From an uncultured Nitrososphaerota archaeon (lineage in GTDB: Archaea > Thermoproteota > Nitrososphaeria > Nitrososphaerales > Nitrosopumilaceae): 64,000 nucleotides of DNA. Both the position numbers and the translations under genes were made by a program. The notes beneath the pieces were generated by a model. It saw only the letters and a program-made list of their open reading frames with translations, was not told the DNA's origin and did no database searches. Of this stretch, positions 713 to 52,048 are shown piece after piece; the stretch's first letter is position 1, and the number at the start of each line of letters is the position of its first letter. The stretch is from assembly GCA_963701075.1 (NCBI GenBank), contig OY969559.1, positions 1,024,001-1,088,000 on the forward strand. The letters are read 5' to 3'.

Positions 713-808
713 CGCCAGGTAAGGGATTCGAACCCCTGAGTGCTAATGCACAACCGCTGCCCTGTATATGATCTCGAGGCGGTCGCCGTACCGCTTGGCT
801 AACCTGGC
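713..808 (-). tRNA. tRNA-Ser(CGA) with a 14-nt intron at 37/38 (intron 759-772)
   Basis: Minus strand: acceptor GCCAGGT/ACCTGGC, D-arm GCC..GGC, anticodon stem ACCGC/GCGGT with CT-CGA-G|ATCATATACAGGGC|A, long variable arm GTGC-ATTA-GCAC, T-loop TTCGAAT. Confidence 0.93.
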
Positions 809-919
809 AACCTGTGAAGACTCGGTTTTAGGTACATAAATACAATGAGAATAAAGTGATCAGATGATCAAATATATAATAAAGGATATAAAGTAGACAA
901 TCTATCATAAAAATATCGA

Positions 920-1084
920 ATGGAAGCAATAACTAAGAAAACCGTATCCATCGAGTTTCAAGGAAAAAAATATGCTCTCTCAGATGATTCTACTATCGAG
1001 GATCTTCTAGTTCATCTTGGTCTACCAAAAGACAAGATGGTCAGGCTACAGGCTACGCAAGATGGGTTTATCCTGATTTCATAG
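920..1084 (+). CDS. Small protein, ThiS/ubiquitin-like beta-grasp pattern without C-terminal GG
   Basis: 54 aa MEAITKKTVSIEFQGKKYALSDDSTIEDLLVHLGLPKDKMVRLQATQDGFILIS; below the ORF-track cutoff. Confidence 0.65.
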   Translation: MEAITKKTVSIEFQGKKYALSDDSTIEDLLVHLGLPKDKMVRLQATQDGFILIS

Positions 1085-1152
1085 TTTGTAATAATTGATA
1101 ATAGATAGTTTATTATTGATACTTTTTAATCACTCATTAGGTATAAGGTATT

Positions 1153-1335
1153 TTGACAAAGACTCGTGTATCCATTACCATTGATGGCGATATTGCAAAG
1201 GCAATTGAAAATTATTACCGCGAAAAGGTCAAGATGGCTGCAGAAAAAGGTGAAGCCATACCTAAACTCTCCAACATTTACGAAGAGATAATCGAAAGAG
1301 GTTGGGAGTTTAAATCTGGTACCCGAAAAAAATAG
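1153..1335 (+). CDS. Ribbon-helix-helix (CopG-like) DNA-binding protein
   Basis: KTRVSITID strand followed by two helices; TTG start. Confidence 0.75.
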   Translation: MTKTRVSITIDGDIAKAIENYYREKVKMAAEKGEAIPKLSNIYEEIIERGWEFKSGTRKK

Positions 1336-1370
1336 GAAAAGCAAAAATCACCATGTTCTAAACTAAACTT

Positions 1371-2396
1371 ATGGGGTTAGATCTTAAAACGCTATGTGTC
1401 AGAGAAAAGACCAACCTAGAATCTTTTGCATCCAAAATTGTTGCAATAGATGCCTACAACGCAATTTATCAATTCCTCTCAATTATTCGTGGACCTGACG
1501 GATTACCTTTAACTGACTATAGTGGAAAAATAACTAGTCACATCACCGGTCTATTTTACAGAAATATAAATTTCCTATCTCTTGGAATAAAACCAGTTTA
1601 CGTGTTTGATGGAAAACCTCCATCACTAAAATCAGCTGAGATTGAAAGAAGAAAGCAGATCAAGAAAGAAGCCACCATAAAATACGAAAATGCAGTTAGC
1701 CAAGGAAGATACGAGGAAGCAAAAAAATATGCACAACAAACATCAATTCTAAAGGACGAGATGGTTGGAGATTCTAAAATACTGTTAGGACTATTCGGAA
1801 TTCCTTTTGTTGATGCCCCCTCAGAAGGAGAAGCTACGGCAGCTTACATGACTATAACTGGACAGGCTCATGTATCTGCAAGCCAAGATTTTGACTCACT
1901 CTTATTTGGAGCAAAGAAGCTTGTGCGAAACTTTACAAATAGCGGTAAAAGAAAACTGCCTAACAGAAACACCACCATAGAGGTGGAGCCTGAAATTATA
2001 GATCTAATGAAAACCTTGGATCATCTAGGCATAACACGGGAGCAATTGGTGGATGTTGGAATATTGATAGGCACTGATTTTAATCCAGATGGATTTGAGA
2101 GGATAGGACCAAAGACTGCATTAAAGGCTATAAAACAACATGGGAGACTAGAGGAAATACCACAAATTCAAGAAAAACTAGACCAGATTGACTACAAGCA
2201 AATAAGAGAGATATTTTTGCATCCAAAAGTAGCAAACGTTTCTGATCTAAAGTTTGGAAATGTTGACTATCAAGGCATAACAAACTACCTTACAAAGGAA
2301 AGAAGTTTTTCTATTGAAAGAGTGGAAACATCATTGAACAGATTGAAAAAATCAATAGAAAAGAAAAGCCATAATCTGGAACAGTGGTTTAAATGA
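1371..2396 (+). CDS. fen: Flap endonuclease 1
   Basis: [42 protein letters not shown] motifs; C-terminal PIP-like NLEQWF. Confidence 0.97.
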
Positions 2397-2482
2397 TTAA
2401 CACTCTGGCAATAAATTTAAACCCAATTCGCAGTTTAAGCTGAGTTCTCTTTTTATGTAACAAATTTCGACAAAACTAAAAG

Positions 2483-4549
2483 TTGAACAGAATTTCGGCA
2501 GTATCAATCTCGATTCTAGTATCAGTATTACTCATATCAAGCATCACGATGCCACAAATATACGCAACAGGTCAGAGAGCAAAATGGGACGTATCTCCCT
2601 ACTTTCAACTCAATGGTACGGCTACCTCATCCCCGAAGGGACTTGACCCTGTCCAGATATGGGATGCTTACGGCTTTTCCAAGATGAACTGTGATACCCA
2701 AAGCAGTATGGGGTGGGACTATGCAAATCTCTGCGGGCATGGCCAGATAATTGCCATAGTTGATGCTTACGATGATCCCAGCATCGAAAATGACCTTGCA
2801 ACATTTGACCAACATTGGGGATTACCGGAGTGTACTACCACAAATGGATGCTTTACGAAAATAACGCCAAATGGCGTTCCAAATAGCAACTCAACTTGGG
2901 CGCTCGAAGAATCACTTGATGTAGAGTGGGCACATGCAATAGCACCAGGTGCAAAGATAGCTCTTGTTGAATCACAGTCAAATAACTTCAGAGATTTGAT
3001 TCATTCAATAAATTATACCGAGACCACTACTGGAGCAAAGCAGATCTCTATCAGCTGGGGTATGCCAGAATTTCAAAATGAGACAAGTTATGACTCTTAT
3101 TTTGCCAAGTCAGGCATTAGCTTTTTTGCGCCATCAGGTAATGGGGCATACAATGCATATCCTTCTGTTTCTCCATCTGTAGTATCTGTGGGCGGAACAA
3201 CTCTTGATGTTGCAGCCAATGGAGCAGTACGAAGCGAGACTGCATGGAGTGAGAGCTCAGGAGGATCAAGTTTCTACGAGCCAGAGCCACAATATCAGAT
3301 AGTATACAACATTGACAGTGACGGCAAAAGGGCAATCCCAGACGTTTCCTACGATGCAGACCCACGCACAGGTTTTTCGGTTTATGATTCAACTTCATAT
3401 TATAACCAGACAGGTTGGTTTCTAGTTGGTGGAACAAGTGCAGGCATTCCGCAGTGGACTGCCATTGCAGCAATAGCAAACAGCCAAGGCGCAGGACTCT
3501 CATCATATCGATTTGTTACCAACGGAGATCTCTATACTGCAGCAACAGGCATAGAGTATTCTTCCAATTACAGGGACATTACTCTGGGAGGAAACATTGT
3601 AAATCAAGCAACTTCAGGATATGACTTTACAACCGGCCTTGGAAGCCCGATATCACACAACCTTGCATCACTCTTATCCCCAAAACCTACTACATCATCA
3701 GTCCCACTAAACCTAGTGGTAACCCCATCCAACAGACAGATATCACTGACATGGCAATCTCCATCTTTTACTGGAGGATTGCCAATAACAAAATACAACA
3801 TCTATCGAGGCACAGCGTCTGCAGCAGAGATGGTAATCAATAATGTACCGTCCACTAATCAATCCTTTAACGATATATGGCTTGAAAACGGGATGCCATA
3901 CTACTACTATGTTACTGCTATCAATGCTGCAGGTGAATCTCATGACTCTAATGAAGCATATGCCATCCCTGCAGGAATACCATCTGCTCCACAGAATCTT
4001 GCAGGAAGTACCTCAGGCGATCAGGTATTACTAACGTGGCAGCCTCCGTCCTCTAATAATGGCTCTTCGATAATAAAATACGATATCTATAGGGGAACAT
4101 CATCAGGCCAAGAGACATTGCTCAATTCTATCTCAAATAGCACGACATCATATGAAGACACCATTACTGGTACTGATCAAACTTACTATTACTATGTGAC
4201 AGCGGTAAATGTGATGGGAGAATCACAGAAATCAAATGAAGTTCCTGTGTCCCAGTCTGCAGGAATACCATCTGCTCCGCAGAATCTTGCAGCTAGTGTG
4301 ACAAGTAAACAGATAGTGCTGATATGGCAGCAACCTGCTTCAACTGGTGGCTCTGCAATAATAAAGTATAACATATACCAAGGTACAAGTCAGGGAAATG
4401 AGGTTTTCCTCTCATCTGTTCCACCAGATGCTTCTGATTATACCAATTCCTTTCTTGTCAACGGTGCAACTTACTATTACTACGTGACAGCAGTAAACGC
4501 TATGGGAGAATCACAGAAATCAAACGAAGTTTCTAGTACACCTGGTTGA
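2483..4549 (+). CDS. Secreted S53 (sedolisin-like) peptidase with three C-terminal fibronectin type III domains
   Basis: Signal peptide; EESLDVEWAHAIAPGA, RAIPDVS, VGGTSAG, GYDFTTGLGSP; three LxWQxP...YYYYVTAxN Fn3 units. Confidence 0.9.
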   Translation: MNRISAVSISILVSVLLISSITMPQIYATGQRAKWDVSPYFQLNGTATSSPKGLDPVQIWDAYGFSKMNCDTQSSMGWDYANLCGHGQIIAIVDAYDDPSIENDLATFDQHWGLPECTTTNGCFTKITPNGVPNSNSTWALEESLDVEWAHAIAPGAKIALVESQSNNFRDLIHSINYTETTTGAKQISISWGMPEFQNETSYDSYFAKSGISFFAPSGNGAYNAYPSVSPSVVSVGGTTLDVAANGAVRSETAWSESSGGSSFYEPEPQYQIVYNIDSDGKRAIPDVSYDADPRTGFSVYDSTSYYNQTGWFLVGGTSAGIPQWTAIAAIANSQGAGLSSYRFVTNGDLYTAATGIEYSSNYRDITLGGNIVNQATSGYDFTTGLGSPISHNLASLLSPKPTTSSVPLNLVVTPSNRQISLTWQSPSFTGGLPITKYNIYRGTASAAEMVINNVPSTNQSFNDIWLENGMPYYYYVTAINAAGESHDSNEAYAIPAGIPSAPQNLAGSTSGDQVLLTWQPPSSNNGSSIIKYDIYRGTSSGQETLLNSISNSTTSYEDTITGTDQTYYYYVTAVNVMGESQKSNEVPVSQSAGIPSAPQNLAASVTSKQIVLIWQQPASTGGSAIIKYNIYQGTSQGNEVFLSSVPPDASDYTNSFLVNGATYYYYVTAVNAMGESQKSNEVSSTPG
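3969..4532 (+). repeat. Tandem duplication of Fn3-coding units, 288-bp period
   Basis: 3969-4004 vs 4257-4292 (1 mismatch in 36 bp) and 4181-4244 vs 4469-4532 are near-identical at the DNA level. Confidence 0.85.
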
Positions 4550-4559
4550 TCTTCTTTCT

Positions 4560-5105
4560 ATGGATCGAGTAAAAAGTTCCCCTAAAACGAGTGTTACTTT
4601 TAGGATTGACTCCAACGAATTAAAACAACTAAAGAAAGAAGCCGATCACAAAGAAATTAGTTTAAACACTCTTGCAGGACAAATTTTTAGGCAACACATC
4701 GACTGGCATTCTAATGCTCCAAAAGCAGGTTTTGTTTCAGTTACAAAAGGTCTGATATCTGGCATGTTGAACAAAATCTCGGATGAAGAAATTCTCAAAC
4801 TTGCAGAGTATACTGCAAAAAAATAATCCAAGGACTTTGTTTTGTTGTTGAGAAATGAATACAATATTATTCCTATATTAGATGTGCTTGAGACAAGAAT
4901 GCGAGTATCTGGCTTTCAGTATAGACATGAAGTAAATGATACTGTCCATTCATACGTAATACAGCATGATATGGGAAATAAATGGTCTATCTATATGGCA
5001 GCACAATATAGATATGTTTTTGATGAGTTTAATCTAAAAACAGTTACCTTTGAAATGACAGGCAATACACTTGCATTCATAGTAGATCTCAAAGCTACGG
5101 ATTAA
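4560..5105 (+). pseudogene. RHH-domain protein interrupted by an in-frame TAA (4824-4826)
   Basis: ORFs 4560-4826 and 4842-5105 share one frame: ...YTAKK*SKDFVLLLRNEY...; N-terminal TSVTFRID RHH signature. Confidence 0.65.
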
Positions 5106-5190
5106 CTGTCATTTGTTTGTGCTTGTACAATAAAAACACAAACCGTTTCTAAATATTTGTCTACATGGAAATTTAGAATTTTTATAATCG

Positions 5191-6801
5191 TTATAGTCGT
5201 TTTCGTTTTTCTTCTATTCTTTTTTCAGATTCCAATCTTTCAAGATTGTAGTTTTTAAGATCAACATGTCTTATTATCTGACTAAGATTTGGATGGATCT
5301 TTTTAATCGACTTGAACATTTCTTGCGCGACCTTGCGATAATCTTGATGTCCCTGTGGGACTGTTCTTAGTTCTATTAAATGAGTAGCTTCTCTAAGGTT
5401 CAATTTCATAAAATAAGGATACTTGTAAGCAAAGTTTACTACATACTGTGCTTGCTCTGGCATTTTTTGTCTTACTAAGTTAAAAATTTCTTTTGATTTG
5501 TACATGCAATCTTCAAAGTCTTTTCTTATTCCAAGTGACAAAACTTCTTTTGGAACAGAAAAATCATGATCTGTTGTTAACAACTGTCTCTCTAGCGTTA
5601 AGACTCGGTGCCTATGAAAATCACGGAACATGCCAAAATTAGTCAGTAGATCAAACGTATAGTCTGTCATTTCAAATCCTCTGGGCGGCCTATGGCGTCT
5701 ATTCTGCCTTATGTCTGAAAACGTTTTGATAATTTTCTTTCTTGCAGGAGAACTCATCTTTCGTATCTGAGATAGTATTTCATGGTATGACATACCTAAA
5801 GACTGTTCGTATAGTAATGCAGAGATTATCTTATCTTCTGCCCTTTTTTCAGATTCACATTCAACCATTTGGACTAGAAAGTCTTTTGTCTTTTTAGACT
5901 TGAGGTATTTCTTGTTGAATGTATATGCAGTATTTTTTAGATCAGATAAGTAACTTTGTAAGGCCTTACCATGTTTATCATCGGCTCTTTTTACAAATGA
6001 CTTGATGGTAGTATCTAACTCTCTGTGTATTTTTGTAGCAGTTTCTCTTTCTTCTCTTAGATTAGAAGAGTATAGTACAGTGAGAAGATACTCAAACGCT
6101 CTTCCATTACCGGTAATTCCAACATTTGTAAGAGTTGAGGCAGGTAATATTCCTCGCAAAACATCTAATGATTTTGCTCTTATTGTTGCATTATAAATAC
6201 GCGTAGCAGACTTGATATCAGATTCGTCTTTAAGGTGTGAAAATAAAATATCCTCTCCTGACGAATTTTTGAATTTTTGATTTTCTATTGGCTCTCTCTC
6301 CTGAATATATGATGTCATCAATTGTATATTTTTAGAATAAACATCAAAATCTAAATTACAGGATTCTAAATACTGATCCGCATATTTTGAATTCATTATA
6401 TAGGACTCTTTGAAAAACTTGTATTCTCCATTAACCTTTTTATCCCAAGCTACATACCGTGAAGACTTTTCAAGATACGACAACCCAATTCTACGGTCTT
6501 CAATTTTCTTTACTGCAATATTGGATAGACCTTCTATTGCAATTTGTGCCTCGCCAAGCTCTGCAACAGAATCATCTCCATATTCTAGTAAGACTTTGCT
6601 GTAAAATTCTTCTCCACGATTTTCGTTTTGCAGAAACTCGTCAAGAAATATCCTTCGCATACTTTTATCAGTTCTGCTGTATCTTGACATCAGAGCTCCA
6701 CGATCTACTTGCCGTGGTGTTATGACTGCAAAAACAGAGTCATCTATATTAGAAAAGTGTTTTAGTAGGATCTCTTTTTCAGATTCAGAAAACTCTGACA
6801 A
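5191..6801 (-). CDS. thyX: FAD-dependent thymidylate synthase (tandem ThyX domains)
   Basis: EKSSRYV and RDFHRHR motifs; double length; likely TTG start at 6801 (ORF extends to 6822). Confidence 0.9.
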
Positions 6802-6836
6802 CACGATTCGAAAGTAGTTCAATTATAAATAATCTA

Positions 6837-7157
6837 CTATCTTGTTATCTTGTCTTTTTTCCCGATTTGAATCAAGTCGGTCGATCCTGTTTTCAATGTA
6901 TTGCGTCTTGATTGCCATCTAAGCAATACTTCCTTAAACGACTCTGCTTCTGACGCATCCTCTGTATACATCAAAGTTGTAACCCATCTTCCTTCTCCTG
7001 CAATACCGCCCATCGAGTTCATCCAAAAATCAGTTGGCATGTTTTCAAAGGCTTTATGGTTTGGATCGCGGCTCATGTCTATCCATCGTTTTGCAACAAA
7101 ATGTAAGACTTCGTCTAGTTCTTCCTTTGTAATCATTGTTGGACCATTACAATACAC
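6837..7157 (-). CDS. Conserved hypothetical protein
   Basis: 106-aa ORF with protein-like composition filling the gap between thyX and cdvA. Confidence 0.65.
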   Translation of the reverse strand: MYCNGPTMITKEELDEVLHFVAKRWIDMSRDPNHKAFENMPTDFWMNSMGGIAGEGRWVTTLMYTEDASEAESFKEVLLRWQSRRNTLKTGSTDLIQIGKKDKITR

Positions 7158-7267
7158 ATGATTTTAAAATTACTAAATTTTCAAAAAGTTAAGAAAACTT
7201 AGCTAAAATGATCTTACTAAAATTGAAAACCTTGTTAACACTTTGCTGATTATATCAAAAATATGAC

Positions 7268-8098
7268 ATGTGCACAATGAGCAAAGAAGATGTCGAGTTT
7301 ATCGGCAAGCAAGTTAAGGACATGTATGGCACTTACATTGGTAAGGTCATAGGAACTATAACTGACATAGATGGAAGTGTACAAACCGTAGGTGTCGATT
7401 GTGGTTCTGAAGGGCTGAAGCAAGTTCCATTTGAGCAACTAGTTGTTCAGGGACAATTCGTAATTTTCATTCCTAGATGGAGATTAGATGCCCAGAGATT
7501 GTTGCGAGAAAAGGGCCTTACATTGCGCCGAATTCGCGCGTTGATAGACATCGTATCTGAAAACGACGACATGAAGGAGGATGCTGAATTGATCCACGAG
7601 AAATATAAAATGAAATTACTAACTCTGGATGAGACCGAAAAACAAATCAAAGAAAAACTAGGGCATAGGCTGTCAGATCTTGACAATCAGCTCAAATCAA
7701 TCAGAATGCTGAGGTTTGATGCCAAATTGCAAAACAAAAGCAATGAAATTTCTGATGCCAAGTACGAATCAGTTAAGACCCACACGGTTGAAATCATCGA
7801 GCACATCGAACACGAAAAGGCAGAGATAGTAAACATTCAACGTCGCATCAACGATCTTTCAGTTGATACTGTGGAGCGAACCGAGAGTCCAAAACAGGAC
7901 GTTCATTCAGCTGCTGTTTCCTACCTTGGTAAGGCGGAAACTTCTCCCTCTCCTCAACCAAAGACACCAATATCTACTGAAATGGTAGTTGGTAATACGA
8001 ATTCCCAAACATCAACCCCCAAACCAGTTGCTATTGGAGCCGATGGTGAGGAAGAACCTCAAGACTCAGATTGGCTTAAGAGAATATCGTCTTCTTGA
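7268..8098 (+). CDS. cdvA: Cell division protein CdvA
   Basis: N-terminal PRC barrel (FIGKQVKDMYGTYIGKVIG), long coiled coil, low-complexity linker and short C-terminal motif. Confidence 0.9.
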   Translation: MCTMSKEDVEFIGKQVKDMYGTYIGKVIGTITDIDGSVQTVGVDCGSEGLKQVPFEQLVVQGQFVIFIPRWRLDAQRLLREKGLTLRRIRALIDIVSENDDMKEDAELIHEKYKMKLLTLDETEKQIKEKLGHRLSDLDNQLKSIRMLRFDAKLQNKSNEISDAKYESVKTHTVEIIEHIEHEKAEIVNIQRRINDLSVDTVERTESPKQDVHSAAVSYLGKAETSPSPQPKTPISTEMVVGNTNSQTSTPKPVAIGADGEEEPQDSDWLKRISSS

Positions 8099-8177
8099 GA
8101 ATATCTGATAGGATGGGAAGATTCGCTCCTGCCTCCTTTTAAGCGAACCTTTTTTTTAAGATGAATACAACACATAT

Positions 8178-10100
8178 TTGTTGGATGCGGTACATTCGAT
8201 AGGTCTTGGAAATAATGACACTATAACAAGAAAAAGAGCAAATCAAGATTATTTAAAATTCTGGGAAGAAGAAGCAAGCAAACTTCATTGGTTTGAAAAA
8301 TGGGATAAAACACTAGAATGGAATCCACCTTTTGCAAAATGGTTTGTAAATGGTAAAATTAATGCGTCTTATAACGCACTTGATGTGGTAGTCCAAAAAA
8401 ACCCGCAGAAGAATGCTCTGCTCTGGGAAGGCGAAAATGGAGAGACGCGAACTCTCACATATGTCGAACTGTTGAATTATGTATGTAAAGTAGCAAACTC
8501 TCTCAAGTCCCTTGGGGTAAAAAAGGGAGACCGAGTTACGATATATCTGCCAATGATTCCCGAGTTGATTGTTTCTTTGCTTGCATGTGCAAGAATAGGC
8601 GCAATTCATACTGTCATCTTCTCTGGATTTAGTTCCCAATCTATTAGAGATAGAGTCTATGACTCAAAATCGAAGGTCATAATTACAGCAGATGGAGGAT
8701 TTAGACGTGGAACGATAGTAAAGCTAAAGCAAGTTGTAGACGAGGCAATATCTGACTTTGATTTTGTGGAAAATGTATTGGTATATGTACATGCCAAGAT
8801 TCCAATGACGTTAGGAAAAAAAGACAAGATATGGACTGACCTGATAAACAACGCATCAGAATATTGTGAACCTGAAAAACTTGACAGCGTTCATCCACTT
8901 TACATTTTGTATACTTCAGGAACTACGGGAAAGCCAAAAGGTGTTCTTCACGGAACGGGTGGCTATTTGGTACACCTTTACAGCACATTCAAGTGGGTTT
9001 TTGATATCAGGGAATCTGATATTTATTTTTGTACTGCTGATATTGGATGGGTTACAGGTCACAGCTATATTGTATATGGACCTTTAATGCATGGTGCAAC
9101 TCAGGTTATGTATGAAGGAGCACTGGTCTTTCCAACACCCACGAGAATTTGGGATCTAATTGAAAGATACAAAGTCACAATACTCTATACGACCCCTACT
9201 GCACTGCGCATGTTTATGAAATATGGTAACTCACTACCAAACTCGAAAGATCTGTCCAGTTTGAGACTGCTTGGTACCGTAGGTGAGCCAATAAATCCGG
9301 AAGTATGGGAATGGTATTTTCAAGTAATTGGAAAAATAAATTGTCCCATAGTAGATACTTGGTGGCAGACAGAAACTGGCGGAATGATGATCTCGCCAGT
9401 TCCAGGGCTAGAAACAATATCGCTCAAACCGGGTTCCGCAACTAGACCGTTGCCAGGAATCAGTGTTGACGTGGTTGATGAAAACGGAAATACTCTCCCA
9501 TCAGGAACAAAAGGCTATCTTGTGGTCAAGAATCCGTGGCCTGGAATGCTTCTTTCATTGTGGGAAGACGATGAGAAATACAAAACTGTATACTGGTCAA
9601 AGTACAAAACCATGTACTATCCAGGAGATTATGCAATTAAGGACAAAGATGGTTACTTTTGGATGTTAGGCAGAGCAGATGATGTTCTAAAGGTGGCAGG
9701 TCATAGGCTTGGTACTGCTGAGATTGAAAGCGGATTTGTATCTCATAAATCAATAGCAGAGGCAGCTGCATGTGGAATTCCACATGATGTAAAAGGCGAA
9801 TCAATAATTGTATTCTTGGTATTGAAGGAAGGCGTAACTACAAGTGAACAATTAGAGGATGAGCTCATCCAACACATACGAAAGGTAGTGGGCCCAATCG
9901 CAACTCCTGATCAACTGTATATTGTTTCCAAGTTACCAAAGACAAGGAGCGGAAAGATAATGAGAAGATTGCTAAAGGCTGTGGCAAACAATGAAAATAT
10001 TGGTGATGTAAGCACATTAGAGGACGAATCTGCTGTAGATGAGGTTCGAGCTACATTCAATGAGCTAAGGCAAACCGTTCAAAGAAATCAAATCAAATAG
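8178..10100 (+). CDS. acs: AMP-forming acetyl-CoA synthetase
   Basis: YTSGTTGKPKG, DTWWQTETGG, PKTRSGKIMRR. Confidence 0.95.
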   Translation: MLDAVHSIGLGNNDTITRKRANQDYLKFWEEEASKLHWFEKWDKTLEWNPPFAKWFVNGKINASYNALDVVVQKNPQKNALLWEGENGETRTLTYVELLNYVCKVANSLKSLGVKKGDRVTIYLPMIPELIVSLLACARIGAIHTVIFSGFSSQSIRDRVYDSKSKVIITADGGFRRGTIVKLKQVVDEAISDFDFVENVLVYVHAKIPMTLGKKDKIWTDLINNASEYCEPEKLDSVHPLYILYTSGTTGKPKGVLHGTGGYLVHLYSTFKWVFDIRESDIYFCTADIGWVTGHSYIVYGPLMHGATQVMYEGALVFPTPTRIWDLIERYKVTILYTTPTALRMFMKYGNSLPNSKDLSSLRLLGTVGEPINPEVWEWYFQVIGKINCPIVDTWWQTETGGMMISPVPGLETISLKPGSATRPLPGISVDVVDENGNTLPSGTKGYLVVKNPWPGMLLSLWEDDEKYKTVYWSKYKTMYYPGDYAIKDKDGYFWMLGRADDVLKVAGHRLGTAEIESGFVSHKSIAEAAACGIPHDVKGESIIVFLVLKEGVTTSEQLEDELIQHIRKVVGPIATPDQLYIVSKLPKTRSGKIMRRLLKAVANNENIGDVSTLEDESAVDEVRATFNELRQTVQRNQIK

Positions 10101-10587
10101 AGATTATCTGTAGTTTCGAACTTGCTGTTATGTTGAACTTGCTAACAAAACCAGCGGTCGTTTCTAATACATACTTTGCTGGTTTGCCTCCTCCATCGTC
10201 CACTGTGCATGTTGCGGTCTCAAGAGCTGATTGACACGGCTGCATATATTTTGTTATATGGACCACATTTCCATTACTATCAAACCAGATTACATCAAGA
10301 GGAAATTGCATGTTTAGCATCCATATGGGAATAACCTGCTCGTTGTTCATCACAAAGATCATTCCCTGGTTGTAGGGCAGCTGATCTTGAAACATCAAAC
10401 CCCTATCTCTCTGTGCATCTGTTTCTGCTACCTGTACATTTAGAGTTACATTGTCTATCTTTACAGTGCCACTTGAAAAATTAACCTCGGCAAGTTTAGA
10501 GTCTGCAGGAATTGTCAATACTCCGACGATACCAATGATCACTGCTGTAATGGCTATTGGGATTAATATCTGTCCTCTTGTTGCCAT
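10093..10587 (-). CDS. DUF192 family protein
   Basis: RGLMF...GMIF...WMLNMQFPLDVIW...YVLE; N-terminal TM. Confidence 0.88.
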   Translation of the reverse strand: MATRGQILIPIAITAVIIGIVGVLTIPADSKLAEVNFSSGTVKIDNVTLNVQVAETDAQRDRGLMFQDQLPYNQGMIFVMNNEQVIPIWMLNMQFPLDVIWFDSNGNVVHITKYMQPCQSALETATCTVDDGGGKPAKYVLETTAGFVSKFNITASSKLQIISI

Positions 10588-10650
10588 AAAAATTGTGATA
10601 CACGTCTAGTTAAAAACTAATGCAAAAAATGTGCTAATAAAAAACTCGAA

Positions 10651-11004
10651 CTATCTCATTTTATCCTTGATGTCTGATACATTTCTTGCAAAGTTCTTTG
10701 CTTCGTGACCTATGTCTGCTATGGTGGAGCCATTGTAAACTTTGTCTAGATACTTACCAGCGATGATCATCGGAACACCTGCAACAGTGGTGAATGGTTC
10801 TGGAGCCAAGAATAAAATGAATCCTATCCTTTGAATCTTCTTGCCAGGTGCAGGTGCACGTTGTAGGGAACCCAGTGCTCTGGCAGTACCTCTATCATCC
10901 AAAGTTCCTAATGTAGAGTAAATCTCGGCTCGCCTTTTGATGGAATCGTTCATTTTCTTAATTTTATGAATACGCCTTTTAAGTACATCTTCCATTTGTC
11001 TCAA
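10651..11004 (-). CDS. Hypothetical membrane-associated protein
   Basis: 117-aa ORF with hydrophobic hairpin GFILFLAPEPFTTVAGVPMIIAG. Confidence 0.6.
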   Translation of the reverse strand: MRQMEDVLKRRIHKIKKMNDSIKRRAEIYSTLGTLDDRGTARALGSLQRAPAPGKKIQRIGFILFLAPEPFTTVAGVPMIIAGKYLDKVYNGSTIADIGHEAKNFARNVSDIKDKMR

Positions 11005-11104
11005 GTTCCGATATGTCTAGTTAAGATTCCATGCAAAAGATCAGTCACAATAAGGTAAAGATTTCTGATCAAAGGATTAGGTTATATCGCTTCAAGTATA
11101 ATCC

Positions 11105-11572
11105 TTGATTTATATCATGAAGGAAAAACGCAGTGAAAGACTTGAATCTATCAAGGAGGCGCATAAATCAACCAAGGGTGATTATTCGAGAGTGGAGGAT
11201 TATCTGGAAGTAATATCGGAACTTGTTGAACTAAAAGGGCATGCAAATACTATTGATATTTCAAGATATCTAAACGTCAGCGCTCCTTCTGTTACAAAAA
11301 TGCTTCAAAGACTTGATGAAAATGGATACCTAGAATATGAAAAATACAAGGGAATAAATCTGACTGCAAAAGGTAGTGCAGTAGCATATGCGATAAGGCA
11401 AAAACATGGAATTTTGCTTGAGTTTTTTAAGATGCTTGGTATAAACCACGAGATAGCAAATCAAGATACAGAAGGAATCGAACACCATCTAAATCCCCAA
11501 ACTATAAAGCAGCTTAGAAAATTCATCATGTTTCTAAAGGAAAATCCCAAAATCTTGGAAGATTTCCAGTAG
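11105..11572 (+). CDS. DtxR/MntR-family metal-dependent repressor
   Basis: EDYLEVI, VSAPSVTKMLQRL HTH, KHGILLEFF, EGIEHHL. Confidence 0.92.
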   Translation: MIYIMKEKRSERLESIKEAHKSTKGDYSRVEDYLEVISELVELKGHANTIDISRYLNVSAPSVTKMLQRLDENGYLEYEKYKGINLTAKGSAVAYAIRQKHGILLEFFKMLGINHEIANQDTEGIEHHLNPQTIKQLRKFIMFLKENPKILEDFQ

Positions 11573-48256: not shown

Positions 48257-49036
48257 TTGGTGTTAGCATTGCTTGAATATCTATGGCTAATACCACTTGG
48301 TTTTGCTGCTGGTATCATAGGATCGATGATTGGCCTTGGGGGTGGATTTGTTATTGTACCCGCATTGACTTTTGCTGGGTTTTCGCCTACTCTTGCAGCA
48401 AGTGATAGCCTCTTTGCCGCCTTTTGTAATGCAGTAGCATCTACACTATCTTATGCTAGGCAAAAACGGATTGTGTATTCCCTAGGGATAAAACTGGCGT
48501 TGTTTTCCATTCCGGGAACAGTGCTTGGAGCGTATATCTCAGATGAAATATCTGCTTCTGCATTCAAGATACTATTTGGCATAGTACTGGTTGCTTCTAG
48601 TGTCTATATTTACTCTAGAAGAAAGATGGAGCCTAAAGAATACCATCTTTCAAAACAGATCATGATGCTTGCAATAGGTGCTAGCTTTTTTGCAGGTATA
48701 ATCTCAAGCCTATTTGGAATTGGGGGAGGTACTGTCTTTATTCCTCTCATGGTTGTAGCAATAGGATTATCCATGAAACTAGCTGCCCCTACATCGCAAT
48801 TCATATTGATGTTTGCAGCCGCATCTGGAATGATTGTCCATTCTCTATTGGGTCATCCTGATTATGCTCAGGCTGGTTTGTTGTCAATAGGCGCATTTGC
48901 TGGAGGAATTGTGGGAAGTAAAATGTCGTCAAGAGTAGACGAAAGAAAACTCAAGATATTTGTCACACTGGTGCTTGCTATCACGTCAATCAAGCTCTTC
49001 ATGGACGCTTTTAACACTCCGGTTAAAACACACTGA
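48257..49036 (+). CDS. TauE/SafE sulfite-exporter family permease
   Basis: Twin GLGGG / GIGGG motifs, ~8 TM. Confidence 0.9.
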   Translation: MVLALLEYLWLIPLGFAAGIIGSMIGLGGGFVIVPALTFAGFSPTLAASDSLFAAFCNAVASTLSYARQKRIVYSLGIKLALFSIPGTVLGAYISDEISASAFKILFGIVLVASSVYIYSRRKMEPKEYHLSKQIMMLAIGASFFAGIISSLFGIGGGTVFIPLMVVAIGLSMKLAAPTSQFILMFAAASGMIVHSLLGHPDYAQAGLLSIGAFAGGIVGSKMSSRVDERKLKIFVTLVLAITSIKLFMDAFNTPVKTH

Positions 49037-49074: not shown

Positions 49075-49542
49075 TTATTTTCTGGTCGGAGGTTCCTTTC
49101 TAATTTGGTAAAGATTTCTTTTAGATAAAAGAACAATCTCCCCGTTGTCTTTTGTCCCTTCAAAATCAATTGATATTAGACCAAACTCATCATTAAGATC
49201 GCGCTTGTCCGATATCTTGAATTTGATTTTTAATTTTTCATCTGTGTTGACAGGCTTGAGAAATCTAGTTTGTCTGTTGTTCCAAGCTGGATCTCCATCT
49301 ATGCCATAGAAAATCAAAAGGTTGCCATACATTTCTTCAAGCCTTGTAAATTCCCCTTCTATTCTTGCTAGTATGGCTCTACCTGAAACCATTTTACCGC
49401 GTTGGTGTGAAAGTTCTCCCTTTTCATAAATTATGTTCTTTATTCCTGAAAAGGAAAGATATCTGTCAAGATCATCTGAAGAAATCTTACACTCTGAAAA
49501 AAACTCGTCTCCAATTTTAAGCTCGGAGAACTTTTTCATCAA
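49075..49542 (-). CDS. MaoC-like hot-dog fold protein
   Basis: KFSELKIGDEF, RFLKPVNTDE; start overlaps the stop of the upstream SDR. Confidence 0.78.
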   Translation of the reverse strand: MMKKFSELKIGDEFFSECKISSDDLDRYLSFSGIKNIIYEKGELSHQRGKMVSGRAILARIEGEFTRLEEMYGNLLIFYGIDGDPAWNNRQTRFLKPVNTDEKLKIKFKISDKRDLNDEFGLISIDFEGTKDNGEIVLLSKRNLYQIRKEPPTRK

Positions 49543-51327
49543 GATCTTGTTTCGTCTGGATAGTAAATTACTTCTGAGTTTGTAACTGCTTTTCCAGATC
49601 TGAAGAAATTCACCGCATTTAGGATTTTTGAGTTGTCTGGTTCTGTCCCATCAATACTTCCAGGAAGAATTAGGTGTATTCTGATTTTTGACTTGAGAAC
49701 ATCACTTAGTTCCTGATTGACTGTTGTGACAAAAGGTCTTAGTGCTCCTCTGAACACTTCTACTTTTGCTCTGTCTCTGCCTGTTACCTTGCTGCCTGAT
49801 GGCATGTCTGGACCAATTATTATGATGCTGCCTTCTTTTTCCTTGAAAAGAGGCGGGTTTTTTGCTCCCCCTGGAACAAATCTGTTAAGGACTTCTTGAA
49901 GGACAAGGGCAGGCGTGTTTATGAATTTGTCTACTAGGCCATCCCATTGTTGCCTTGATAGACTCTGTAATCTTTGGGACTTGAGGCAATTTTCCAGTTA
50001 CATAAATCACTGCATTTATTGGCCCTATCTTTTCTGTGGCTGTATTTAGCATTCTTTTCATGTTTTCTTGACTGTTGATATCCATCACATGCGAATGAAA
50101 CTTGGATAATCGTTCTTCAGCCTGCTTGATGCTGGTCTTTGAAATCAAAATTACAGTTTTTCCTCCATTGTTTTCAATATTTTGTGCAAGATGTTCTACT
50201 CTTGATACATCTGACTCTTCTGTGGCATCTACTACAAACAAAATTACTTTTGAGTTATAGTCTGGCTTGGTATCTGGTATTGAGCAAGCTATATGTGGTT
50301 TAACAGGATAGAAGACTCTGTCGCCTGGAATTACTTTGCCATTTAGAATCTTTGATATGTTTTCATCACATAGCATAAGGACAGTTTCAGCAACTTGCTG
50401 CTGTGACAAGAACTGTTCATCTGCAATCATTTTGCTAGTATTATTTTGAATCTTTTCTGCAATCTGTTGTATTTTGACCAAAAGCGAGGTGATTGTATTG
50501 TCAAGTTTTTGAATTTCTGGTTCTGACGTTATCGACTTTGTCTTTGCTAGCTTTGTTGTTGCTTGTCTTACTCCATTTTTTACTGTGTTCTCATCTTCGC
50601 CTAATAACGGAAGGATATCATTGTTGACCGTCTCTACTTCCTCTGGAGTTATATTTTCAAAACCACTGACTCGCATAAACTCTGCTGCTGCTTTTGGATA
50701 TACGGTTTTGTATATTCTGTCAGAATGAACTGGCCCAGGATTTGTAGCAATTGATATTATTCCTTTGTCTGTAAGCTCCCACGACATTGCCTCTGCAAGT
50801 CTATTCTTTGCTCCTTGAGAAGCTGTATATGGACTTCTAAACCTGTATGGTCTTTGCTCAAACGGGCGTTCTTCTGTGAAGAAAGTAGATATTGTTACAA
50901 TTTTGCATCCTGATTTCATGGATTTGATTGCCTGAGCTGAAGTCCAAAATGTACCGGTGAGGTGAATACCGACAGTACTCTTGAAATCACTCATTGGGGA
51001 ATTGGCAAAACATGTTACTGGACCTGAAACTCCTGCGTTATTTACTAAAATATCGACGGTTCCATGAGTCTTCTTTAAATCTTCAAACATTTGAGAAACC
51101 CCTGCCTCATCGCTGACATCAACTCCTGGGAAAATTTTCACAAACGCACCGCTTTTGGCTTTGTCAATTATTGGTTGCAGCTCCTTGGCAGCTTCTTCAA
51201 GCGGCTCCTTTCTTCTTCCTAAAATGACTATATTTGCACCATTTTCGGCAAATTTGATCGCTATTGCTTTTCCAATTCCAGTGCCGCTACCAGTGATAAC
51301 CACGAGTTTATCTTGGAACTTTAACAT
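49539..51327 (-). CDS. Tandem SDR oxidoreductase resembling the C-terminal half of bacterial malonyl-CoA reductase; +1 frameshift at 49962
   Basis: TGSGTGIG, NNAG, PYRFRSPY, PGPVHSDRI, helical insert and second degenerate SDR; deleting one base joins KITE to LSRQQWDGLVDKFINTP (595 aa). Confidence 0.85.
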
Positions 51328-51664: not shown

Positions 51665-52048
51665 ATGTCACAAGATCTAAATCCGTCACCTTGGGGAGCA
51701 CAAGACAGATTTCAAGCTCATTTTATTGTCAAAACTAAAAACCAACTAGCAGATACTGATGATCTTCTTGCCAAAACAAAACTAAATACCGAAGGACACT
51801 TTTCCACAAAGAAAGTATCTGGAATAGAATGGGTTGGAGGAAACCTTACAGCATCTCTAAATTCAGACGAAGAACTCAAAAACATGATTTTGAAGCTCCC
51901 TCCAAATGACGCCTTAATTTGGGTAGAGCCAACCAAGAAAGGAATTAGAATTCATGGTAAATGGAAGAGTAGTCAAGAATTGGGTATTACAAAAGAACTA
52001 TTCGATGTCTATGACAGGATAGCTTCTCATATCAAAAAACTTCTCTAG
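51665..52048 (+). CDS. Hypothetical protein
   Basis: 127-aa ORF starting 1 nt after the previous stop. Confidence 0.72.
   Translation: MSQDLNPSPWGAQDRFQAHFIVKTKNQLADTDDLLAKTKLNTEGHFSTKKVSGIEWVGGNLTASLNSDEELKNMILKLPPNDALIWVEPTKKGIRIHGKWKSSQELGITKELFDVYDRIASHIKKLL

Follow-up and report, generated by a model that had tools for sequence, protein, structure and literature searches.

The locus and its tandem dehydrogenase gene

The window, the whole stretch of 64,000 nucleotides analysed here, lies at positions 1,024,001 to 1,088,000 of contig OY969559.1 and comes from an uncultured archaeon of the Nitrosopumilaceae, the genome of which is one contig of 1.92 Mb. The gene considered here lies on its minus strand and encodes a protein of 595 residues, in which a catalytic short-chain dehydrogenase/reductase (SDR) domain is followed by a helical insert and a degenerate SDR domain (Table 1). 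We discuss it as a candidate for a carbon-fixation enzyme of ammonia-oxidizing archaea (AOA), a malonyl-CoA reductase (MCR). In the deposited sequence the gene is split into two open reading frames (ORFs; translation table 11), 49885..51327 (480 aa) and 49539..49805 (88 aa). The longer matches adh_short (PF00106, E 4.4e-40) and related SDR models in Pfam, and no Pfam match was found for the shorter. Three-frame translation showed that the 480-aa frame continues in the +1 frame, and deletion of the extra base at 49961/49962 gives a single ORF of 595 aa, which bears out the repair made in the initial annotation. The nearest named public homologues, from Nitrosotalea, are annotated just as "SDR family NAD(P)-dependent oxidoreductase".

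The extra base does not lie in a homopolymer and is absent from the aligned sequences of the close relatives L009 and L011, which suffice for this claim; L010, from an unpublished genome, was also in the alignment. At least part of the stretch is carried by 20 public runs, none of them recorded as RNA, and Logan contigs were compared from four, belonging to two studies. Since the extra base is missing from the contigs of every one of the four (depth 8.6 for X1, 11.1 for X3 and 5.4 for X4, and three contigs for X5), it is most likely an assembly or consensus error; X1 is possibly the source sample of the genome. At 51069-51070 the deposited TC reads CT in the contigs of all four runs and in L009, changing Thr86 to Ala, and this is a probable second consensus error, or else a strain variant. 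Downstream of the extra base the frame is 93% identical to the orthologue and contains no more stops, and the gene was found in 24/24 same-genus genomes searched, one of which has an internal TAA. From the contigs and the same-genus genomes together we treat the gene as intact in nature. The reading that the deposited +1 frameshift has turned it into a pseudogene in this organism was rejected on the evidence of the public-run contigs and is highly improbable.

Table 1. Positions in the window of the tandem-SDR gene, its parts and the adjoining reading frames
Feature	Coordinates	Strand	Remarks
Whole gene, 595-aa tandem-SDR protein	49539..51327	-	Stop TGA 49539-49541; deposited frame broken by one extra base
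Catalytic Rossmann SDR domain, residues 1-~202	50722..51327	-	TGSGTGIG 12-19, GRR 37-39 (NADPH-type), D70, NNAGVSGPV 96-104, T148
Active-site motif, residues 161-174, Y161-R-F-R164-S-P-Y167-T-A-S-Q171-G-A-K174	50806..50847	-	YxxRxxY, Gln for SDR Lys
Residues 196-219, NPGPVHSDRIYKTVYPKAAAEFMR	50671..50742	-	Most conserved block; R204 aligns with CoA-binding Arg785 of Roseiflexus MCR
Helical insert, six helices, residues 203-327 (~125 aa)	50347..50721	-	Same insertion point as the MCR C-terminal half's extra domain (ED)
Pseudo-SDR domain, residues ~355-595	49542..50262	-	No Gly-rich motif, no YxxxK; invariant FRGALRP 525-531
Extra base (G on + strand, C on - strand)	49961..49962		Apparent frameshift after ~residue 455, within pseudo-SDR domain
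Downstream ORF, 155 aa (TTG) / 154 aa (ATG)	49075..49542	-	Start overlaps SDR stop (TGATG)
Two small ORFs, 78 and 127 aa	51427..51663, 51665..52048	+	Divergent from SDR gene

The orthologue from L009, which is 98% identical, stood in for the window protein in alignment and modelling. An AlphaFold2 model of it (mean pLDDT 87.9, pTM 0.89) reproduces the order of SDR, helical insert and degenerate SDR that the initial annotation had proposed, with an insert of ~125 aa in place of its estimate of ~90 aa, and a strand at 332-334 goes back into the first domain. Conservation was assessed by aligning 24 orthologues, drawn from four AOA families and sharing 47-88% identity with the first of them. Invariant in 24/24 are TGSGTGIG 12-19, G37-R38-R39, D70-V71, NNAGVSGPV 96-104 and T148; E152-E153, Q158-R-P-Y161-R-F-R164-x-P-Y167-T and Q171-G-A-K174-N-R-L; a run of 21 residues, N196-PGPVHSDRIYKTVYPKAA-E216, then F217 and R219; and, beyond the insert, D336-RVFYPV and F525-x-GALRP. 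The GRR after strand 2, remarked on earlier for its bearing on NADPH, is thus present in every sequence. Of the classical SDR hallmarks, the Rossmann features TGxxxGxG and NNAG are in place and the Ser/Thr-YxxxK triad is not, the position of its lysine being occupied by Gln171. The same YTASQ sequence, with a lysine three residues later, had been flagged at the outset as an oddity. Since both Gln171 and Lys174 are invariant in all 24 orthologues, the arrangement is, as judged from the alignment, a conserved design rather than decay. The stretches 151-161 and 336-343 were modelled with low confidence and are strongly conserved, and because these two properties coincide they may be mobile substrate loops.

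Likeness to the halves of malonyl-CoA reductase

The characterized MCR is a protein of ~1220 aa, the C-terminal half of which (MCR-C) consists of a catalytic SDR (SDR3), the ED inserted after PGPV and a pseudo-SDR (SDR4), while the N-terminal half (MCR-N; SDR1 and SDR2) is a malonate semialdehyde reductase. Our comparison set comprised MCR-C of Chloroflexus aurantiacus, Roseiflexus castenholzii and Porphyrobacter dokdonensis (8j2b, 8hi5, 6k8s), together with MCR-N (8hi6, 8aew, 6k8v). When the model was compared with the PDB using Foldseek, the entries listed above rank 26 were all MCR halves or full-length MCR, with MCR-C (E 5.4e-26, TMq 0.72) ranked ahead of MCR-N (E 3.1e-24). The next fold was a tandem-SDR dehydrogenase, 2et6 (E 5.2e-19), and single SDRs followed near 1e-13. 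VIA-align gave Z 36.2 for MCR-C (rmsd 3.0 A, 522 of 595 residues aligned) and Z 34.9 for MCR-N (rmsd 3.0 A, 489 residues aligned), the MCR halves as a group scoring Z 33-36 and the best ordinary SDR Z 27.1; nothing but MCR half-enzymes matched the model over its full length. Because both methods put MCR halves well above other folds, the window protein is, on the modelled structure, a stand-alone MCR-type half-enzyme. The structural comparison that the initial annotation had asked for thus returned MCR, with MCR-C at the top, and not unrelated SDRs. The likeness to MCR-C lies in the succession of catalytic SDR, helical insertion after PGPV and pseudo-SDR, in NADPH-type cofactor residues, in the YxxRxxY motif with a long loop before it, and in an equivalent of the CoA-binding Arg785. 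With MCR-N the protein shares the tandem SDR fold, a catalytic Thr and YxxRxxY. It differs from MCR-C in standing alone, in an identity of ~18-19% and in its place in the tree.

The catalytic domains were compared in a quick IQ-TREE tree of 71 rows taken from 111, near-duplicates, fragments and half of the MCRs having been dropped; the groups were assigned by motif, which is partly circular. Four clades were obtained: MCR-C (support 100), MCR-N (100), a partner module found in bacterial proteins, here called X (100), and a clade, here called Q, that includes the AOA proteins together with bacterial modules (98). The four together were separated from ordinary SDRs with support 92, a node that is not starred. 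In this tree the AOA protein is outside the MCR-C clade and in a Q-type clade of its own.

One feature, read straight from the sequences, that does discriminate MCR-C from MCR-N is the length of the loop between the catalytic Ser/Thr and the tyrosine with which YxxRxxY begins. This loop has 12 residues in Q and 11 in MCR-C, as against 6 in both MCR-N and X. The AOA spacing is T-x12-Y-x2-R-x2-Y-x3-Q and departs from that of MCR-N, T-x6-Y-x2-R-x2-Y-x3-K, in which YxxxK is canonical. A further difference between the halves concerns the helical insert, which occupies the place of the ED, although with ~125 aa rather than 150 aa. MCR-N is without a large helical insert, and hhalign treats AOA residues 224-300 as an insertion relative to it, whereas the alignment to the C-half spans the insert.

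The active site was compared residue by residue through HMMER and hhalign sequence alignments. According to the article on the Roseiflexus enzyme (PMC10470521), the catalytic triad of MCR-C is Ser731-Tyr749-Lys753; YxxRxxY (Tyr743, Arg746, Tyr749) grips the malonyl carboxylate and is common to both halves, MCR-N having Thr165 as its catalytic residue; and CoA is bound by Arg785, Leu795 and Arg799 (ED) and by Arg1164 (SDR4). The same source gives the ED as residues 783-932 (150 aa) and reports that Ala substitutions of Ser731, Tyr749, Lys753 and Arg799 are inactive. In the alignments Ser731 corresponds to AOA Thr148, Tyr743/Arg746/Tyr749 to Tyr161/Arg164/Tyr167, Arg785 to Arg204, Arg616 to Arg39 and Asp651 to Asp70, and each of these seven AOA residues is invariant in the 24 orthologues. 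Lys753 corresponds to Gln171. In place of the Ser-Tyr-Lys triad of MCR-C the AOA protein has Thr148, Tyr167 and Gln171, with a lysine at +7 from the tyrosine. Of the five motif pairs that the initial annotation had listed for the two proteins, the four in the first domain were reproduced in a HMMER alignment to 8hjw (Chloroflexus MCR), and the fifth was recovered by hhalign, FRGALRPFVTTVNQE aligning with FIKTTLHSLTATLGVE of the related MCR P0164.

Bacterial relatives, distribution and gene neighbourhood

The AOA profile was scanned against 1.84 billion representative proteins, of which 92 reach E 1e-30. Beyond AOA proteins and fragments, the matches are multi-module proteins with YT..Q..K. In P0140, P0143, P0152 and P0142 (~1105-1186 aa) a Q module is followed by an X module, which has MCR-N spacing plus a canonical YxxxK. 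P0121-P0125 (~1660 aa) have an extra N-terminal region of no known type, and in P0126 and P0146 (~2551 aa) an enoyl reductase (ADH_N, ADH_zinc_N) and an enoyl-CoA hydratase precede Q and X. A propionyl-CoA-synthase-like colinear region lies N-terminal of the SDR modules in the giant proteins P0131 (5572 aa), P0148 (6910 aa) and P0154 (4553 aa); the giant P0132 was checked for such a region, which was not found. Over residues 3-592, insert included, P0131 shows 36% identity in its Q module to P0001, an orthologue that is itself 97% identical to the window protein. The bacterial proteins thus share the Q-type motif and the clade with the AOA protein, but their Q module is always fused to the MCR-N-like module, often together with hydratase, CoA-ligase and enoyl-reductase modules, whereas the AOA protein stands alone. 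All four giants (P0131, P0132, P0148 and P0154), which carry Q-type and X-type SDR modules, have hydrophobic, signal-peptide-like N-termini. An unexpected pairing was seen in P0139 (1465 aa), where a Q-type tandem-SDR module is joined to a C-terminal HATPase_c, a histidine-kinase-type ATPase domain.

Comparison of P0143 with species genomes gave nine loci, eight in Acidobacteriota metagenome-assembled genomes (MAGs) and the ninth in a MAG that carries the label Rickettsiales. A synthase-like gene lies directly upstream of the Q-X gene in seven of the nine, L051 having no upstream DNA and L056 no such gene. In L052, where the gene pair lies at 796-11408, it is on the same strand and encodes 2377 aa, with an enoyl-CoA hydratase domain, an AMP-binding domain of the acetyl-CoA-synthetase type and a zinc-ADH domain. 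[quoted passage not shown] By this precedent, the fusions and the conserved adjacency therefore tie the Q-X pair to a route through malonyl-CoA, 3-hydroxypropionate and propionyl-CoA, and the Acidobacteriota gene pair could be an undescribed malonyl-CoA-to-propionyl-CoA module. Because X has the exact MCR-N spacing and YxxxK, Q is the likelier CoA-acylating partner; within the pair, Q shows features of the CoA-acylating half and X those of the alcohol-dehydrogenase half. No description of the bacterial Q-X proteins or of the Acidobacteriota system was found in the literature. The gene order of a 2377-aa synthase-like gene and then a ~1135-aa Q-X gene was seen among the Acidobacteriota loci L048-L055, and a gene for an FG-GAP repeat protein follows the pair in L052 and L055.

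The distribution of the gene in the order was assessed in 250 genomes at least 80% complete, with amoA detected by PF12942. A full-length orthologue was found in 145 of the 146 genomes of the four amoA-bearing families, with E values from ~1e-104 to 0. By family, orthologue and amoA were each present in 64/64 genomes of f1, 8/8 of f4 and 10/10 of f9, and in f15 the orthologue was present in 63/64 and amoA in 61/64. Both were found in 0/104 genomes of the 13 other families, and five of these 104 genomes gave generic SDR matches near 1e-21. Most genomes have one match, and some of f15 have two or three that are partly split genes. The tallies include the unpublished G011 (f1) and G267 (f15), and dropping both alters nothing. 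This is the pattern, mostly single-copy in the amoA-bearing families and absent elsewhere, that had been anticipated for an enzyme of the AOA cycle.

In its own genome the gene is single-copy, the seven other SDR matches being ~250-290 aa long and at most 36% identical. The same genome has two Fe-ADH genes (semialdehyde steps), one 4-hydroxybutyryl-CoA dehydratase-like gene, one clear Asd-type gene plus one weak match, and two ALDH genes. Otte et al. are said to have assigned the malonic semialdehyde reductase of N. maritimus to the Fe-ADH family in 2015. The ALDH family was set aside as a universal CoA-acylating reductase candidate: it was not found in 7/64 f1 genomes, which are 98-99% complete and include four single contigs, and it occurs in most non-AOA families (f10, 58/58, for example), so that AOA do not all have it and are not its only carriers.

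Of the genes beside the SDR gene, the downstream ORF (49075..49542) has a MaoC-like hotdog fold (model pLDDT 64; TMq 0.70 and E 5e-8 to 1q6w) and adjoins the SDR gene in 10/24 AOA loci, all of f1. It appears to be without the Asp and His of what we take to be the hydratase-2 motif, and may be functionally linked to the SDR gene. The two small divergent ORFs are kept beside the SDR gene in 15/24 AOA loci from three families. Even at E 5, Pfam gave no family for these two or for the downstream ORF. A TauE/SafE-family membrane protein (48257-49036, plus strand) is encoded near the SDR gene in 15/24 loci from all four AOA families, which could reflect either old synteny or a functional link.

A candidate reductase for the archaeal carbon-fixation cycle

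AOA fix carbon by the 3-hydroxypropionate/4-hydroxybutyrate (3HP/4HB) cycle, the most energy-efficient aerobic CO2-fixation cycle. The initial annotation had stated that the malonyl-CoA reductase of this cycle was not biochemically identified in AOA and had supposed that a candidate might already be in print. On the first point publications from 2018 (PMC6038301), 2020 (PMC6964070) and 2026 (a preprint, bioRxiv 10.64898/2026.09.02.748891) agree, each calling the AOA enzyme unidentified, and a marker-gene resource of 2026 (PMC12894919) offers no marker for the reductase in the AOA variant. The second point also proved right: in 2006 Hallam et al. put forward, tentatively, an ORF of Cenarchaeum symbiosum as an MCR candidate, giving its N-terminal SDR domain as 32% identical to Chloroflexus MCR (PMC1403158). 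No published identification of the AOA malonyl-CoA reductase was found, although supplements or negative assays may have been missed.

Taken together, these results suggest, with a probability that we put at roughly 0.57, that the window protein is the NADPH-dependent malonyl-CoA reductase, perhaps also acting on succinyl-CoA, that is missing from the 3HP/4HB cycle of AOA. It would convert malonyl-CoA to malonate semialdehyde and maybe succinyl-CoA to succinate semialdehyde. In Metallosphaera one enzyme covers both the malonyl-CoA and the succinyl-CoA step. The sequence features, the fold, the distribution and the bacterial fusions and neighbourhoods are shown by the data, whereas which substrate is used, in which direction the reaction runs and what Gln171 and Lys174 do are what we infer. 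In a scheme drawn by analogy with MCR-C the Rossmann fold would take up NADPH through TGSGTGIG, Arg39 and Asp70, and Tyr161 and Arg164 of YxxRxxY would clasp the free carboxylate of the acyl group. The thioester carbonyl, polarised by Thr148 and Tyr167, would then receive the hydride, the usual role of the SDR lysine being assumed by Gln171 together with Lys174. The CoA moiety may lie between the helical insert, acting as a lid, and the pseudo-SDR domain, with a contribution from Arg204.

A number of observations pull the other way. Structurally, MCR-N lies within 1.3 Z units of MCR-C, and the model does not single out the CoA-acylating half. When the AOA profile was aligned by hhalign with the N-halves and C-halves of 18 MCRs, the N-half gave the highest score (314.1, E 2.7e-40, 394 columns, query 3-482) and beat the C-half (290.5, E 1.7e-36, 526 columns, query 5-577, insert included). 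The tree leaves the order of Q, C, N and X unresolved, X being nearest to Q with support of ~65, and the insert is much shorter in bacterial Q modules of the P0121 type. In a sequence-only search of the PDB just the first domain matched, with 83 bits to SDR3 and 73 to SDR1 compared with 91.5 to 4iuy and 87.9 to a glucose dehydrogenase, and by this measure it is no nearer to MCR than to ordinary SDRs. The lysine of the triad is Gln171 in AOA, while the Lys753Ala form of the Roseiflexus enzyme is dead in the source cited above. Of the CoA-binding residues, Arg1164 and Arg799 could not be matched confidently to AOA residues: the former position is probably Asp542 in a low-confidence alignment, and the region of the latter aligns poorly, with K207, K212 and R219 invariant nearby. 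Nor is YxxRxxY exclusive to MCR, since single-domain SDRs of ~260 aa (P0226, P0239, P0245, P0246, P0253 and P0257) have YxxRxxY-x3-K. No 3HP/4HB cycle gene was found within ~5 kb of the gene in the AOA loci, and co-distribution with amoA is weak evidence, being shared by any AOA-core gene among related genomes that are not independent. Finally, a related candidate was named as early as 2006 and no activity has been published for it, which could reflect failed attempts. Profiles, structure and tree therefore do not discriminate which MCR half the AOA protein resembles. The match to MCR-C claimed in the initial annotation holds for the half-enzyme fold, with MCR-C top-ranked, and fails for specificity to MCR-C, given the near tie with MCR-N and the separate clade.

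Some of these observations would fit an AOA-core oxidoreductase that acts outside the 3HP/4HB cycle on another carboxylate-bearing carbonyl or thioester compound, such as a 3-oxoacyl-CoA, or in a pathway specific to AOA, and whose likeness to MCR reflects common ancestry alone. The Q clade is separate from both characterized MCR halves, the catalytic lysine is replaced, cycle genes are missing from the neighbourhood, and the next structural match after MCR, 2et6, is a tandem-SDR (3R)-hydroxyacyl-CoA dehydrogenase. The enoyl reductase, enoyl-CoA hydratase and SDR modules of P0126 could equally be a set for processing the beta carbon, and the MaoC-like hotdog ORF downstream hints at some acyl-thioester chemistry. 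However, the Tyr-Arg pair that would bind a carboxylate is invariant, and the bacterial fusions and neighbours include, besides hydratase and reductase, the kind of acyl-CoA synthetase domain that marks propionyl-CoA synthase. The distribution is exactly that expected of a cycle enzyme, and two CoA-acylating reductases are still missing from the cycle. On balance we regard a substrate outside the cycle as unlikely.

The similarity to MCR-N raises another alternative, an NADPH-dependent semialdehyde reductase that would form 3-hydroxypropionate from malonate semialdehyde, or 4-hydroxybutyrate from succinate semialdehyde, and leave the CoA thioester untouched. Besides the slight preference of hhalign for the MCR-N half (314 vs 290) and the nearly tied structural Z, the catalytic position holds Thr, the residue of MCR-N, and not Ser, and YxxRxxY occurs in both halves. 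The succinic semialdehyde reductase of N. maritimus was likewise listed as unidentified in 2018 (PMC6038301). Against this, the loop of 12 residues is close to the 11 of MCR-C and not to the 6 of MCR-N, and the large lid insert sits where MCR-C has its ED. Moreover, the bimodular bacterial proteins without exception join Q to an X module with the exact MCR-N spacing and YxxxK, and the AOA genome already carries two Fe-ADH genes. We consider a semialdehyde reductase to be unlikely, about as much so as a substrate outside the cycle.

The proposed malonyl-CoA reductase would share its reaction and its position in the 3HP/4HB cycle with the malonyl-CoA/succinyl-CoA reductase of the Sulfolobales, a paralogue of aspartate-semialdehyde dehydrogenase (Asd). 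The folds are unrelated, however, the window protein being without the Pfam domains Semialdhyde_dh and Semialdhyde_dhC, and a shared function would have arisen by convergence. A wider proposal, which we advance tentatively as a possibility somewhat short of even odds, is that malonyl-CoA reductases have another lineage, so far overlooked, in the Q-type proteins, the catalytic motif of which is rewired, Gln taking the place of the SDR lysine and a Lys coming one helical turn after it. The AOA form would then be the missing malonyl-/succinyl-CoA reductase, and the bacterial Q-X proteins with their synthase-like unit, in Acidobacteriota and in the giant proteins of uncultured bacteria, would convert malonyl-CoA to propionyl-CoA. 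If this is true, modules for carbon metabolism of the 3-hydroxypropionate type would be far more widespread than current marker genes show. A confirmed AOA candidate would itself be an example of an SDR that reduces an acyl-CoA with the canonical lysine absent, and would draw attention to kindred malonyl-CoA-to-propionyl-CoA systems among bacteria, Acidobacteriota included. The biotechnological manufacture of 3-hydroxypropionate has MCR as its key enzyme.

AOA are among the most abundant microbes of oceans and soils and account for much of the carbon fixation in the dark ocean. Because the AOA genes for the two CoA-acylating steps of the cycle are missing, pathway-prediction resources are without markers for these steps. 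Confirmation of the candidate would close this gap in the AOA cycle and supply a marker gene for it.

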